Source: an uncultured Alphaproteobacteria bacterium (GTDB lineage: Bacteria > Pseudomonadota > Alphaproteobacteria > HIMB59 > GCA-002718135). Taken from it: DNA of 64,000 bases. Positions 45,001-51,000 of the stretch are shown here, one piece after another. The position numbers were made by a program. Every line of letters begins with the position of its first letter. Within the stretch, counting starts at the first letter, position 1. The stretch is from positions 3,214 through 67,213 of the forward strand of contig CACOVJ010000002.1 of assembly GCA_902630465.1 (NCBI GenBank), written 5' to 3'.

Positions 45001-48000
45001 AAAATATTTAACATTATTTTTTGATGAAATAATTTTTGATTGATTTTGAAAATAAAAATAATTTTTTGATAATCTTTTATCATCAATATCATAATTGCTA
45101 TAGCCACCTCTGATCCAATATAAATTTGGTTGTAATGAATAAACAATTGTTGACAAAAATTGACCAGTAAATGTATAATTTAAAAGATTATGTGTTAGTT
45201 TTTGAATTAGTGTTTCATTTAATTTAAGAACAATTGAATACTCTTTTGAGGACCAATTATTTTTCCAGAAATAATTCTTAAAATTTTTATTTAAACTTAA
45301 ATTTTCTGTTCCAATATAACTTAAAAAATCATTACCGCCTTGTAATGATATAATTAAATCTGGATTTTGATAATTTAATATTCTTAAAACTATATTAAAA
45401 AAATCATTTTTTGAATTGTATCCAGATATGCCTTCATTGAAAACATAGATATTTTTTGAGCACCTTTTTTTTAAAATTTGATCTAAATTATAGGGTATTG
45501 TCTCTTTTTCATTTTTTGCACCATCACCTTCAACAGTAGAGCCACCGATCATATAAATATGATATTCATTTTTATTTTTAGAATTTATAATTCTATTTTT
45601 TCCAAATCTATAATTTTGATTATATAGAACTGTATTTGGATCAGAATTATTAAATTCAGAATTAAAAAAAATATTATAATAATGTAATGGGAAAGAAATT
45701 ATATCAGTTACAGAATTAAGATTATCCGCATATTTATTAAATGAAAAATTAGTATTTACATATGTATTAATTAAATTATTTATAAATAATCCAGTAAAAG
45801 AAAATATTTCAACTGCAAAAAAAAATAAAAATAATTTTAAAATAAATTTAATTTTTTTCATTAAAAGGACATTTTTAATTAATTTACAGACATTTTTTTA
45901 TTTATAATACATTAAATACAAAAATTGTTTAATTTATATTTTATATATTATTTAGGGTGTAATTAACTTAGAACTGCCTTAAATATTTTACATTTTAATT
46001 TCATAGCAATAAAAGTCTTGGAAAAAAAACTAGGTAATATATAGGATTTTAAAATCGGAGAGATGGCTGAGCGGTTGAAAGCACTGGTCTTGAAAACCGT
46101 TTTTTTCATTACAGAAAACAATCAAAAATAATTCAGAGGAGAGAAAATAAAGCGAATTTTTTATAAAATTAATCACCCTACTCTGAAATAAATATCTTCA
46201 TAAACCTCACCTTTTGGTTTTTTTAATTTGTATTGATTATTTTTTAGTTCATGGACGCAGTTATCTATAATACTTTTTGGGTGACTTAGAAACCATCTAT
46301 TCTTAGCAACTGGTATAACTCTAGACATTTCTGGAGCAAAAAAAGTTCGTATATCGTATCCTCCCTCTAAAATAGTTTTGTAAAACTGACCGCTATTAGC
46401 AGTGAAATTTGAAGGTGTATAATAATCAAACTCATGCTTTGAGCTATCTTTTGGTTTAAATAGATTGGTTATAAGTTGATTATCTTTAACTATTTCAAAT
46501 CCGTATAATTTTTGTTCAAATTGTTCATAATCTTGCTCTTCAGCGTTATTTAGAGAGACTACAACACTTCTCAATAAAACATGATGTTTCAACTCATAGT
46601 TTTCAATATTTGTAACAAATTCATATTTTATATTATGACCTGATGGTTCTACAATAATTAGTTGTGCACCGCATATAATTACATCTTCATCATCATCAAA
46701 TTCAACTAAAGGATAATAGAGATAGGCTCTTTCAGTCCATTCTTCATAAGATTCAATCTCTTTGAATTCATTTTGTATATTTAGTTGATCAATTAACAGT
46801 TCTTTAGGAGATAAAACTCTAAATTTTTTAGGATATAAATCACTTTCATACCATTCTGTTGAAAAAGAAGTTGTGGCACCAAGAAGGAGTATAATAATGA
46901 AAAATAAGGTAATTATGAAAGTTACAATTCTTATTATTAGTGCCACAATTACAATTTAGTTTCAAATAATGAAAGATTCTTGTTTTAAATAAGGTTTGAT
47001 TATGAAATTTTTAAAATATTATTTGTAATTAACCACTTTACTTTAATAAAAGATAAATATAAGATTATATTGTCTTAAACAGGATTGTTTTCGACGCTTA
47101 ATAAAATGGTCGGATGACCAACACATTAAAAGGAGAAGTTATGTCATACAATGTATGGGAGCTACCTACTAAGGTAAAAAGAATGGCTCCAGATCCAAAC
47201 CACAAACACGATTTAAATCAAATACACTTCTGGTGCTTTGTAAATATTTATGATCTTTGGGAAGCCACTAAAGCACAAGGATCACTACCATTTGATCCAA
47301 ATCCAAGAGAACATGAAGACTCAACGGATTTAAATAGTACAGTTATGAAGGAGCAAAGAGAAACATTCTTTGATGATGAAACTCCATTTCATCAATGGAA
47401 TCTTGGAGTAACAATTTTTGTTCGTGAAGCTGAAGAAGTTGAAAATCAAAGAGGTAAACTTAAACTCTATTTCGATAAGGGTGATGGTATATCAAATGGA
47501 GGAACTACTTATAGAAATCTCATGAAAACGATTGATGATACTATAAAAAAAGAGGGTAATAGAGATTCTATACCAAGAGACCAGCATTTATGGATTTCAG
47601 TTCGAACTAATATTCCAAAAACATGGAATGCTAGAATGGCTGAGGCACATAATAAAACTTCTAAAGTTTTAGAAACTGCTTTGCTTAATGCTGAAAATAA
47701 ATTTTCTGACATTATAAAAGTTCTTAAAAATAAATCTTATTTTAATGAAATTATTTTTAAACAAAATGCACCAGGTAATATCGATATTAGCTTGATATTA
47801 AGAATAATGGAAGCTTTTGATGTTTCAAGATTTGCAAATGACAGCGATGTTCATCCGGTGCATGTTTATTCTGGAAGTGGTAGAGTTATTACTGCTTTTA
47901 AGAAAAGAGTAGATATTGGCAGAAAAGAAAATGAACCATTTCATCGAATGTTAGATATTCTTCCTGAATGTTTAGAGCTTTATGATATAATACGTTCATC

Positions 48001-51000
48001 ATTCTTTGATTATCTTCCTTCAAGAGTGCAAAATAATCTTAACAAACATCCTTGGATAAAAGAAAAAAACACTCAGCTTTATTTTATAAATAAGGAAATT
48101 GATTATGATTTGTTAACTCCGGCACTGTTTCCAATATTAGGTTCATTTAGAAATTTTGTCGGACAAGATTCTATTGATCAAAATATGTATTGGAAAACTA
48201 GTTTTAAAAATATCGTATCTTCATGGAAAGAAAATGCAGAAAAATTGATGAAAAAAACAATGAGTCAATATGAAGAAACTGATGCAGTACATGACATTGG
48301 TAGAAGTAAGTATCATTGGTCAAACATACATGATCAAATGAATGTTTATTTCGAAAAAACGTTTGAATAAATTTATCCTTGAGGGGGTGTATTACACCTC
48401 CTCATTAATTAAATATTTTAATTAAATAGTTTTTAATATATAGCGACTAATCAACGGAGAGATGGCTGAGCGGTTGAAAGCACCGGTCTTGAAAACCGGC
48501 AACGGGGCAACTCGTTCGTGAGTTCGAATCTCACTCTCTCCGCCAAATATATTTATCTATTTACTGTTCCCCAACTAATTCTGTTCCAACCTCTTTCATG
48601 TAAATAATATAAAACTGTCTTAGTAATAATTTCTAATAATGTAATACTCCCTGCCCATGATAATTTTCCAGTAATAATATAACTAATTAAAAAAGTGTCT
48701 GCAGATGCCAATATTCTCCAACTTATCGCTTTTACAAATGATCTTGTTTTATTTGCTATCATATTATTTCCTTTGTTAAATTTTATATGTTTAGAATAAT
48801 TCTAAAGAAATATTTAGTTATTAAAATTAATTTTTATCTTAATTATTAAAATGAGTGTGCATTTCTTATTAAACAATGTAAAGTTTTATTATTAAATAAC
48901 GAAAGGATTTTTATGGCAATTTTTGTTTCACTAGGTATTTATTCACATAAAGGTGCGGATGGAATTATAAACGGTTCTTCAGATAGAAAAGCTGCGATGG
49001 AAAAATTAGTAAGCAGTGTTGGAGGAAAATTAATTGATTATCATATTACAAGAGGTCAATATGATTTTGTAATGATTACTGAAGTTGATTCTTTTGAGGC
49101 AATTGCTGCTTGTGCATTAAAAGCAAAAGCTTCTGGAACATTATCCGAAGCTATTACATTAGAGTCTGTTGATCTTAATAAAGTTAGAGAAATGGGTAAT
49201 AAAGTAGATTTTTCTCCTCCGACATCATAAAATTATTGGCACTCTAATTTAAGAGTGCAATTATTTTTTTTTAAATAACCATAATTTATCTTGTGCTAGT
49301 AAAAATATTTTTCCATTTTTTGGATGTATTTTAATGTCCCTAATTCTTCCAATATTATTTTTAAAAATAATTTCTTCTCTTACATTATTTAAATCATTAA
49401 AATCTAATGAGCGAAGAGATTGATCTTTTAAAGATGTTACGAGAGCAAGACCATTAAACTCTGGAAATTCTTTTCCTTTATAAATTGATATTGCGCTTAC
49501 TGCTATTGATGGTACCCAATAATAGATAGCTTTTGTATATCCTGGTTGCCATTTTGGACCTATTTCTGAATTATCATAATTTGTTCCACCCCAACCTAGT
49601 ATTTTCCATCCATAATTCTCTCCTTTTTTAACTTCACCAAACCAATCACCACCCTTTGCTCCATGATTACTAATATAAATTTTATCATCAAAAGGAGAAT
49701 ATGAAATACCTTGAGGATTTCGAATTCCTATTTGGTAAATTTCTGAAAGCCAATCTGTATTAGAAGTAAAGTGTGGGTTATCTTTAGGTGCACTTCCATC
49801 TAACCTAATCCTTATTATACTGCCAGGATGTTTGTCAGTTTCTTGAGCAATCATACCTTTTCCTCTTTCTCCAACTGATGCATATAAATAATCATTATGA
49901 ATAACTATTCTCGAACCAAAGTGATAAGGCGATCTAATTGGCGGATTAGCTCTAAAAATATTTTTAAAATCTAAGAAACTTAAATCTAAATTTGCTTTTG
50001 CAATAGAAGTAGTTGAAGGGCTGAACAATTTATCTTCTATCTTTTCAGAATAGGATATAAATATTTGATTTTTATAAAAGTAAATATCTAGAAGACCACC
50101 TTGAGAATTTTTATCTCCAATAACATTTAAGTTATGATCTATTTCAGTAATTTTATTAGTTTGAATGTCGAATAACTTAATTTTGCCAGTTTTTTCGCTA
50201 ATTAATGCCTGATTATTATTTATAAATGTCAAACTCCAAGGAGAGCTTAAGTTTGATTTTAAAATTTCGAGTTTATATTGATTGTTTAAAGAAAAAACAT
50301 ATTTACTACAAAATAAAAAAATAATAAAATTTAATATAGAAAATATTTTAATCATTATTTAATTAAATTAATAACTTTTTTAGATAATTCAAACCTATCA
50401 TCAATTAAATTACCACTAAAATCATAAAAAATTTTTTGATCGGGTCTTAAAATTATAGAATTATTTTTTGATAATGATAGTTCTAATAACTTTTCTGGAT
50501 TTATTGGTTTGTTTTGAAAAAAACTTACTAGTATACCCTTTCTACTAAACTCAAATTTTTCAATTTTGTTTTTCAAACAAATTATTTTGATTTCTACTAG
50601 TTTTAATAGATTAATTAATTGAATAGGTAATTTACCAAACCTATCTATTAGTTCTATTTTTATATCTTCAATTTCTTTATTATTATTAATATTTGAAATT
50701 CTTTTATAAATAGAAAGTCTTAAATCAACATCATTAATAAAATTTTCTGGTATATATATTTCAACAGGTATTTTAATAATAGGTTGAAAACTGTCTTTTT
50801 TTATAAAATCAGAATTTATTTTATTTTTTTGTAAATTTATCTCTTCCTCAAGCATTTGATGATAAAGCTCAGTTCCAATTTCTTTTATGAAGCCACTCTG
50901 TTCTTCACCAATAATAGAACCACCTCCTCGAAGGTCTAAATCTTGAGATGCTATATTAAAACCTGCTCCTAGATGATCAGAAGAATTTATTATAGATAAT

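Follow-up and report, generated by a model that had tools for sequence, protein, structure and literature searches.

Probable attachment-site scar at tRNA-Ser(UGA) beside an integrase-less two-gene islet of a SAR11-type bacterium

Why would the front half of a serine tRNA gene stand, behind the same short promoter-like box, some 2.4 kb upstream of the complete gene? This question is posed by a stretch of 64,000 nucleotides (nt; 'the window' below) from an uncultured alphaproteobacterium of the HIMB59 lineage (GenBank assembly GCA_902630465.1, contig CACOVJ010000002.1, positions 3,214 to 67,213), where a partial copy of tRNA-Ser(UGA) and the intact gene bracket an islet of two divergent open reading frames (ORFs). 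An initial annotation, made from this sequence alone, had taken the repeat for a scar of site-specific integration. Comparison with related loci and with phages supports that reading through empty sites, alternative cargo, a swapped promoter and a phage attachment site (attP) with its integrase, and we consider it likely that the upstream copy of 43-44 nt is a left attachment (attL) scar produced by site-specific recombination at the tRNA-Ser(UGA) anticodon stem-loop.

The tRNA is numbered here linearly over its 90 nt, which places the anticodon at 35-37, the anticodon stem at 28-32/40-44 and the loop at 33-39. The two copies are as follows.

48456 to 48545, plus strand: intact tRNA-Ser(UGA), the presumed right attachment site (attR); called by ARAGORN as a 90-nt tRNA-Ser(tga).
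46057 to 46099, plus strand: probable attL scar, nt 1-43 of tRNA-Ser(UGA), delimited by alignment, by the boundary in relatives and by a phage attP core.

Alignment with MAFFT runs without gaps over 44 positions (46056-46099 against 48455-48498) and contains a single mismatch, T 46085 against C 48484, at nt 29 on the 5´ side of the anticodon stem. The upstream copy consists of the preceding C plus tRNA nt 1-43 and stops one base before the end of that stem. The copies lie 2399 bp apart, start to start, and this tRNA-Ser half is by far the strongest repeat within 41000-50500; no 3´ piece of the tRNA was found elsewhere in the window. In addition, the 10-mer TAATATATAG is present twice in the 64 kb (at 46035 and 48434), both times 12 nt 5´ of a repeat copy. 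Chance would supply about one occurrence anywhere in the window, and a second at the same offset is not chance. The repeat with its single C/T difference in the anticodon stem, the identical 10-mer 12 nt before each copy, the spacing of 2399 bp and the intact 90-nt gene downstream, all noted in the initial annotation, were thus reproduced.

If an element has been inserted here, then related genomes should include unoccupied versions of the locus. We fetched 74 loci from species-representative genomes with mfd as the anchor, nearly all of them from SAR11-type single-cell genomes, and made the count of empty sites on the 62 loci that hold both flanks. The site is empty in 57 of these 62, with a lytic-transglycosylase gene ~150 bp from a single tRNA-Ser and no fragment, just as had been predicted. 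The intergenic region of such sites carries a promoter-like TTGACATTTTTATGTTGAAACTATAGT (TTGACA...TATAGT) ~13 nt 5´ of the tRNA. Measured against them, the 5´ side of the tRNA in the window is longer by ~6.3 kb (42163-48455), of which the bracketed islet is the right-hand 2.4 kb.

The islet itself, which holds divergent ORFs at 46173-46946 (minus strand) and 47141-48370 (plus strand), comprises three features that recur in other genomes.

46173 to 46946, minus strand: orf257 cargo gene, with an N-terminal membrane helix and no family; recurrent cargo of tRNA-linked islands.
47043 to 48374, plus strand: AIPR module, a conserved leader and an AIPR-family gene (47141-48370); Pfam PF10592, with identity to the contigs L102 and L128.
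48381 to 48403, plus strand: GC-rich hairpin after AIPR (GAGGGGGTGTATTACACCTCCTC); its position is conserved in L103, L122 and L128.

Both genes had been described as orphans. The divergent pair stands, and the orphan status falls for one member: its 409-amino-acid (aa) product matches the Pfam family AIPR (PF10592, 'abortive infection phage resistance') at 35.9 bits (cut-off 25) over profile positions 1-305 of 308, and so over nearly the whole profile above the curated threshold. The protein differs from the family in having no PADLOC or NCBIfam match; searches of PADLOC, PHROGs and NCBIfam with either product gave no usable match, and a collection of 5.8 billion proteins holds only one close homologue cluster of the AIPR protein. 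Against GenBank phages, the AIPR protein has one remote match, to an unannotated gut contig, orf257 has none, and the tRNA-Ser genes are the only matches to the islet DNA. An AlphaFold model of orf257 was unusable (predicted local distance difference test score 39.8, from an alignment of 6 sequences), and an exact-sequence look-up in the contig index found neither the window AIPR product nor the 100%-identical orf257 cluster representative (P0002). AIPR is listed among the anti-phage hotspot cargo of P4-like satellites (PMC9122126); by analogy with its family name, a putative role in phage defence may be suggested for the window protein.

Other DNA occupies the same position in other lineages, so that the same fragment and gene pair are not found everywhere, and the expectation of other cargo between the same repeats is borne out by L018, L115, L122 and L128. 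The contig L128, from a single-amplified genome (SAG), reads in order: transglycosylase gene, ancestral promoter, tRNA nt 1-43, orf257, an HNH-like ORF, AIPR, TAATATATAG, 12 nt, the tRNA and a glucose/sorbosone dehydrogenase (GSDH) gene; it matches the two window modules at 91.6% and 95.8% identity (the latter for the AIPR module). L018 likewise has the ancestral promoter and nt 1-43, and its homology to the window is unbroken from the fragment through orf257 (74%); the place of AIPR is taken by two other genes, and an element-type promoter (…TTTAGTAATATATAGCATTTCAAACATAC) precedes the intact tRNA. A fourth cargo set, which includes an orf257 homologue, lies behind the same nt 1-43 fragment in the TARA contigs L115-L120. 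In the metagenomic contigs L122-L126 and L102-L104, AIPR is the sole gene of a 1740-bp insert that has no integrase. This cassette sits between a fragment (nt 1-43) with the chromosomal promoter and an intact tRNA behind TTGTTATATAG; from the left it reads attL, 33 nt, CGTCGTGTAAGTGTCGTGT, AIPR and the hairpin, followed on the right by TGTCGTGTAAATGTCGTGT, 57 nt, TTGTTATATAG, 10 nt and the full tRNA.

The tRNA identity of the fragment ends at nt 43 in all of these occupied sites (L018, L115, L122, L128), and it is exactly at nt 43 that L102 ceases to be homologous to empty-site genomes. The window islet is a mosaic of two modules with different kin, an orf257 module (46053-47023) related to L128, L018 and L115, and the AIPR module (47043-48374) related to L128 and L102/L122. 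Fragments carry T at nt 29 in the window and L018 and C in L128, L102 and L115, and those of L122-L126 have a G17T change; a T29:A43 allele of the tRNA is found in the sister genomes L014, L017, L027 and L056. Between window and L102 (9908-11234), the AIPR DNA is 84.8% identical (protein 92%) and the syntenic core 69.8% identical over 9.7 kb, a disparity that points to horizontal transfer of the cassette.

Several further observations concern these occupied sites. The HNH-endonuclease-like ORF of L128 (7327-7893, 188 aa) lies between orf257 and AIPR and is cleanly missing in the window (junction ~47023-47043), and the L128 AIPR gene is broken into ORFs of 140 and 244 aa. L007 has a comparable 5´-side insertion with an element-like box and no fragment. 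The SAR11-like contig L090 (9465-9508) has an nt 1-43 fragment with the same end base between an EamA gene and recG, with no intact tRNA-Ser within ~5 kb and no arm repeats of the kind described below. In L115 (1-700, 3800-4030), the full tRNA behind the 5´-side island combines a promoter of ancestral type with a variable arm of phage type, and a displaced 3´ fragment, from nt 32 on, lies ~350 bp downstream.

Which of the two promoters, then, is original? The relevant regions of the window are these.

48417 to 48455, plus strand: putative promoter region from which the working tRNA would be expressed, supplied by the element; TAATATATAG box at 48434-48443.
46016 to 46056, plus strand: putative element-type promoter region before the fragment, with the TAATATATAG box at 46035-46044.

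A chromosomal promoter of the TTGACA...TATAGT/TATAAT type is found in empty sites and at the attL of L018, L128 and L122, and the intact tRNA that adjoins an island has a TAATATATAG or TTGTTATATAG box in front of it. The comparison of promoters among empty sites, L018, L128, L122 and the window therefore suggests that promoter and 5´ part of the tRNA came with the inserted DNA, as the initial annotation had argued. At the level of sequence, the element in the window, L018, L128 and L122 brings a putative promoter plus the tRNA 5´ part, which is what defines a 5´-complementing element. The window departs from its relatives in one respect: the stretch 46016-46099 shares 88% identity with the L018 attR, promoter and tRNA included, and is unlike the chromosomal promoter of empty sites. 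The element-type promoter of the fragment thus appears to have been inherited from an earlier 5´-side insertion.

These comparisons bear on a simpler explanation, in which the promoter region of the tRNA was copied locally, by tandem duplication or slippage, before an unrelated insertion of two genes, and no integrase took part. Such an event would account for the -10-like box and the 5´ half in both copies. It would leave unexplained that the 12 nt separating the TAATATATAG box from the tRNA, and all DNA further upstream, are unlike between the copies, that relatives have the chromosomal promoter at the left copy and the element promoter at the right, and that the identity ends where a phage attP core ends, here and in at least five other, different islands. 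We regard this explanation as exceedingly improbable. A local origin of the duplicated 10-mer was itself rejected: the counterparts in L018, L128 and L122 place the box on the incoming elements.

The AIPR-only cassette is flanked on both sides by a tandem repeat with an 11-nt period. At its left end the repeat TGTCGTGTnnnTGTCGTGTA follows nt 43 at a distance of 33 nt, and at its right end it precedes tRNA nt 29 by ~100 nt; in L115, an arm TGTTGTGTAAGTGTTGTGT again lies 33 nt after the fragment. A scan of IMG/VR with the cassette arm motif yielded the viral contigs L106, L108, L109 and L112, uncultured temperate phages represented by uncultivated virus genomes (the two longest 34-35 kb; G+C content 0.32-0.33). 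Their attP consists, in order, of arm repeats with an 11-nt period (TGTCGTGTA), a spacer of ~91 nt, the 15-mer CGGTCTTGAAAACCG (equal to tRNA-Ser nt 29-43), ATTTTATCCCTTGAATACCAATAAAAACAACCC and arm repeats again. Its 15-bp core, CGGT-CTTGAAA-ACCG, has inverted stem arms around the 7-nt anticodon loop, and with up to two mismatches allowed the 15-mer matches the window twice, against 0.01 expected. The phage DNA 3´ of the core opens with ATTTTATCCC and agrees with the L122 junction at 55 of 60 positions, a score that none of 500 shuffles equalled. L129 and L130 are further phages of the L108-type group, with the core at nt 29-43 and slightly different arms; 47 of 58 positions agree between the P´ arm of L130 and the junction in L115. 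The right-hand limit of the window repeat is thus that of a phage attP core, by which it would have been set.

Next to the P arm of this attP is a 409-aa integrase of the tyrosine type (Pfam 33.6 bits; PHROG_1 E = 1e-27), which has no match among GenBank phages when the L108 protein is used as the query, and the genes of a holin and of LexA-like and cI-like regulators lie close by, as does a phage-borne tRNA-Ser(tga). The L108-type phages thus bring a whole tRNA-Ser and do not complement a split one. The L122-type cassette keeps both phage-type arms together with the element promoter and tRNA nt 1-28; the latter two stand between its P arm and the core, at a spacing of 99 nt as against 91 nt in the phage. 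Taken together, the sequence comparisons indicate that the tRNA-Ser(UGA) anticodon stem-loop serves as the attachment site of an uncultured temperate phage group.

The initial annotation had suggested a search for a phage attP carrying the 43-mer plus the box. An attP beside an integrase was indeed found, and the 43-mer was not; in its place stands the 15-bp core that ends at the same nucleotide. In IMG/VR, the exact 43-mer has four matches, all of them to full-length tRNA-Ser genes that belong to host DNA or to tRNA arrays of phages and none to an attP, and a stricter fragment pattern has zero. A relaxed pattern recovers the L080-type phages only, which have a different host, and a metagenome scan returned mostly whole tRNA-Ser genes in which nt 44 is not G, with true fragments only in L080, L082, L096 and L090. 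The L080 type is a second phage group (L080, L082, L096, L097, L099, L101; G+C content ~0.38) whose attP is a promoter plus nt 1-43 beside an integrase; its target is the tRNA-Ser of another host, and the end nucleotide is the same. In L080 (2900-3460) and likewise in the other five members, which are temperate, a TATAAT promoter plus nt 1-43 lies 280 bp from a divergent tyrosine integrase. The CACCGGTCTT-like copies that flank this attP may be extra integrase sites.

Might the islet then be a decayed prophage, a complete temperate phage with a 5´-complementing attP of which nearly everything has been deleted save two accessory genes? The initial annotation had named a heavily decayed element as one of its two options, and on this view no cassette without an integrase would ever have moved by itself. 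Phages of just this attP design exist, as the L080 type demonstrates for another host, the SAG L027 has a phage-type tRNA-Ser in its island and L115 a phage-type variable arm, and the arms of the window are degenerate. However, the islands of L018, L115, L122, L128 and the window contain no recognizable phage gene, and the L122 cassette encloses a single non-phage gene within both arm sets at phage-like spacing in only 1.74 kb. Moreover, the phage integrase adjoins the P arm, and deriving the cassette from such a phage would require an exact swap of this gene for AIPR. We therefore judge the decayed prophage to be rather unlikely.

The mechanism that we favour runs as follows. A tyrosine integrase of the phage family would recognize the 15-bp core at tRNA nt 29-43; the stem arms would form its inverted repeats, and the 7-nt loop would be the overlap. 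The incoming DNA would carry an attP-like site in which the stretch from the P arm to the core is a promoter (with its TATATAG box) plus tRNA nt 1-28. Recombination would rebuild an intact tRNA at the right end (attR, 48456-48545) under the promoter of the element and would strand the previous promoter and nt 1-43 at the left end (attL). In the window, the target would already have possessed an element-type promoter from another 5´-side insertion (42163-46015), and the TAATATATAG box would for this reason stand at an equal distance from each copy. Had the element integrated into the stranded fragment, the outcome would be no different, and either order of insertion fits. A circular or tandem form of the cassette is predicted to have the junction TTGTTATATAGGGTTTTTTAA + tRNA nt 1-43 + ATTTTATCCC...TGTCGTGTAAGTGTCGTGT. 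Judging from the geometry of the core and the boundary of identity, we infer that the crossover takes place in the anticodon loop. The L115 arrangement points to a capture of promoter and tRNA DNA from the host as one possible origin of complementing attPs, and to crossovers within the anticodon loop.

Since the cassettes encode no recombinase, another question is how they move. Their double-arm architecture around a single non-phage gene, together with their transfer between lineages, favours mobilization in trans by a phage integrase, a proposal that we hold as plausible and somewhat short of probable. Sequence comparison also indicates that small cassettes with the same attachment architecture have been inserted, exchanged between lineages ~30% diverged in their core DNA and then frozen. 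A more speculative extension, which we consider doubtful at present, is that the AIPR cassette is a minimal parasite of temperate phage integration, with one putative abortive-infection gene placed inside a copy of a phage attP. The promoter and tRNA nt 1-28 would on this proposal have been added to the attP so that insertion spares the host tRNA-Ser, and insertion, perhaps also excision and spread, would occur only with integrase from that phage group. If this were true, phage infection would deliver or mobilize a defence gene against phages, and two cores in mirror orientation, served by two related integrases, would let cassettes pile up on both sides of one tRNA.

Several observations weigh against a scar of phage-type integration. 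T29 of the fragment could be a host allele, part of an attP or a later mutation. Scans of contigs and of IMG/VR found no excised or circular cassette junction and no phage with a SAR11-type 43-mer attP. When five integrases were compared with the 64-kb window by tblastn, only noise resulted, and arm-type repeats sought in the window are not present; its P´ side is weakly similar to phage L108 (41 of 53 positions, a score that 6 of 500 shuffles also attained). No tRNA fragment is found at 42162, where the 42163-46015 insertion has its left junction, and a reading by serial integration must therefore assume a deletion. Finally, the element promoter has no recognizable -35 element, and a scan with the sigma-70 consensus called neither TAATATATAG box a promoter; its assigned role rests on position and on conservation across islands. 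The five AIPR-cassette contigs likewise include no free form, in that a chromosomal promoter upstream of attL marks all of them as integrated copies.

Part of this pattern is what one would expect of a copy that can no longer move. As the initial annotation had stated, no integrase gene and no phage gene was found in the islet (46100-48455). Intact arm repeats are kept in L122 and L115; the corresponding parts of the window are as follows.

46100 to 46172, plus strand: degenerate P´-arm region, with an 11-nt period (GGAGAGAAAAT/AAAGCGAATTT) and no intact TGTCGTGTA repeat.

On the other side, the P-arm repeats that come after the hairpin in L103, L122 and L128 are absent after the hairpin of the window, where the P-arm segment between AIPR hairpin and promoter that L103 and L122 have is missing. 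The lack of both an integrase and intact arm sites implies a relic that is now fixed, and the window islet is probably an immobilized remnant.

An immobile islet could also have arrived without any integration at this site. Islet and fragment may have been imported passively, or reshuffled, by homologous recombination with another SAR11-type cell in which flank or tRNA sequence served as the homology, with the integration having happened elsewhere. Identity to L128 is 76% in the upstream flank (35882-42071), 91% in the downstream flank (49259-56080) and 92-96% in the islet, and the contrast between the flanks may mark a recombination breakpoint at the tRNA locus. Consistent with import are also the pairing of the fragment with orf257 inside a tRNA-Gly island (L127), the different relatives of the islet modules and the missing att scar at 42162. 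Such import would explain how the fragment travelled, not how it originated, and it is compatible with a scar of site-specific integration; furthermore, the junction of element promoter and fragment in the window lies within or beside the tRNA, as site-specific recombination predicts. We give passive import a minor, tentative place.

A last alternative concerns the persistence of the fragment, which might be kept for a function, either as a short transcript or as a decoy or secondary attB that diverts phage from the working tRNA. The -10-like box has been kept, a T-run (TTTTTTT, 46100-46106) directly follows the fragment, and near-intact fragments persist in several lineages. The tRNA-Ser has two overlapping CGGT-N7-ACCG sites, at nt 16-30 (48471-48485) and nt 29-43 (48484-48498), and the fragment keeps mutated versions of both (46072-46086 and 46085-46099) with one change (mutated core TGGTCTTGAAAACCG). 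Against a function, point changes accumulate freely (T29 in the window and L018, G17T in L122-L126), some 5´-side islands lack a fragment (L007 and the left junction of the window), and no terminator was called at the T-run. A retained function is, in our view, very unlikely.

The left copy does not stand at the border of chromosome and element: an element-type promoter and a 3.9-kb insertion precede it, and at least two 5´-side insertions are stacked here, namely the one that left this promoter and block to the left of the fragment and the islet. The remaining features of this side of the tRNA are listed below.

41093 to 42162, minus strand: left flank, with a lytic-transglycosylase (SLT_2-type) gene and the start of the ancestral intergenic region; synteny with relatives.
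42163 to 46015, no strand assigned: second 5´-side insertion, absent in all 74 related loci; L102 synteny ends at 42162.
42193 to 44034, minus strand: carbamoyltransferase gene in this insertion.
44047 to 44199, minus strand: small ORF of 50 aa in this insertion.
44211 to 44612, minus strand: SxtJ-like gene in this insertion.
44659 to 45861, minus strand: SGNH/GDSL gene in this insertion.

The homologue of the lytic-transglycosylase gene of relatives occupies 41093-42124, and L102 synteny with the window stops at 42162. The block 42193-45861 looks like a cell-surface or small-molecule modification cassette, and the nearest homologue of its SGNH protein outside the source genome is 48% identical. 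To the right of the tRNA lie DUF2061, GYD, GSDH and mfd genes.

The other side of the same tRNA is used as well, and tRNA-Ser is a two-sided integration hotspot. L017, L056, L018 and L027 contain classic 3´-side islands, in which displaced tRNA fragments of 73-76 nt start at nt 15-18 and are preceded by the phage arm ATATCTACACGACATCTACACGACA and then 33 nt. Phage L113 (5735-5870) has an attP core equal to nt 16-30, with the same arm motif on the opposite side, and its integrase is 30% identical to that of L108. In the 3´-side island of L027 (7660-7747 in window orientation), two sulfotransferase-like genes enclose a second tRNA-Ser, of phage type, which has the same variable arm as phages L106 and L108 and looks like a direct relic of prophage integration. 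On the 5´ side, L016 (AG-892-B03) has an island of at least 7.8 kb that replaces the transglycosylase neighbourhood. Its products include an adenylate cyclase-TPR protein and an MscS-cNMP channel, and the far end of the island encodes a Phage_integrase-family protein (62.9 bits) for which BLASTP shows no relation to the L108 integrase.

SAR11-type bacteria are the most abundant cells of the ocean, with tiny genomes and almost no recognizable mobile elements. How they gain variable genes, including anti-phage genes, is a practical question for which this locus offers a concrete and testable route. It provides defined core and arm sequences, a candidate integrase, and empty and occupied alleles with which to approach the question of integrase-less cassettes. 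In the literature on SAR11 prophages and tRNA-Ser we found no description of this locus.

Among known systems, the closest are phages of the same hosts. For SAR11 podophages, 5´-complementing integration has been reported, and others bring an entire tRNA gene with them (Zhao et al., bioRxiv 10.1101/410191). Those of the HTVC019P type are T7-like, have their attP between the integrase and RNA polymerase genes and target tRNA-Cys, -Leu and -Arg (bioRxiv 10.1101/410191). Like the system described here, they combine SAR11-type hosts, a tyrosine integrase and an attB in a tRNA gene with its core in the middle or at the 5´ end, and both variants, 5´ complementation and a whole tRNA of their own, occur in them as in our phages and cassettes. 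In contrast, tRNA-Ser(UGA) is targeted here, cI/LexA-type regulators and an integrase without a GenBank phage match characterize the phages whose attP fits, and the window holds, instead of a prophage, a 2.4-kb integrase-less islet without phage genes.

Recombination with the 5´ part of a tRNA is known as the rarer orientation (PMC6563490, citing Zhao & Williams 2002, J Bacteriol 184:859). The element of Zhao and Williams resembles the present one in that the tRNA 5´ portion is on the element, so that the promoter is supplied with it, and in that a displaced 5´ fragment lies upstream. It is said to bear an integrase and to recombine, in another organism, with the 5´ part of a tRNA gene. In contrast to that case, the same tRNA here also has 3´-type scars in sister genomes, which appear from their sequences to have been made at the nt 16-30 core by a related integrase.

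Serial integration at tRNA genes is familiar from Prochlorococcus tycheposons, where partial tRNAs lie between islands and degenerate elements occur (Hackl et al., bioRxiv 10.1101/2020.12.28.424599), and from the additive islands of Methylophilaceae, with their tRNA-end repeats (PMC10872708). Streamlined marine bacteria, serial tRNA integration, integrase-less remnants and defence cargo are common to these systems and ours. Tycheposons have their own tyrosine recombinase and usually a replication module, whereas the window islet has neither and its att architecture is that of a temperate phage. A tycheposon-like island does occur at tRNA-Gly(gcc) in L127 (1043-9703; SAG GCA_902630475.1, CACOVH010000001.1), with a tyrosine recombinase, an HTH_17 protein and a DUF5906/P4-type primase followed by cassettes split by three 50-nt 3´ tRNA-Gly repeats; in one of these cassettes, a homologue of orf257, 88% identical to the window at the nt level, adjoins a decayed tRNA-Ser.

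Finally, the CIME-type elements of streptococcal integrative and conjugative elements (ICEs) are integrase-less, att-flanked and cis-mobilizable by way of the recombinase of a helper. The L122-type AIPR cassette is like them in that it lacks a recombinase gene and is bounded at either end by recombination sites, whose geometry is that of a complete attP. It differs in that the presumed helper is a phage rather than an ICE and in that the window copy is devoid of arm sites. Given that tRNA-gene islands are well known and that 5´-side complementation has been reported in SAR11 phages, the present finding extends known biology, and its possibly new element is the integrase-less, attP-mimicking cassette that carries a defence gene.

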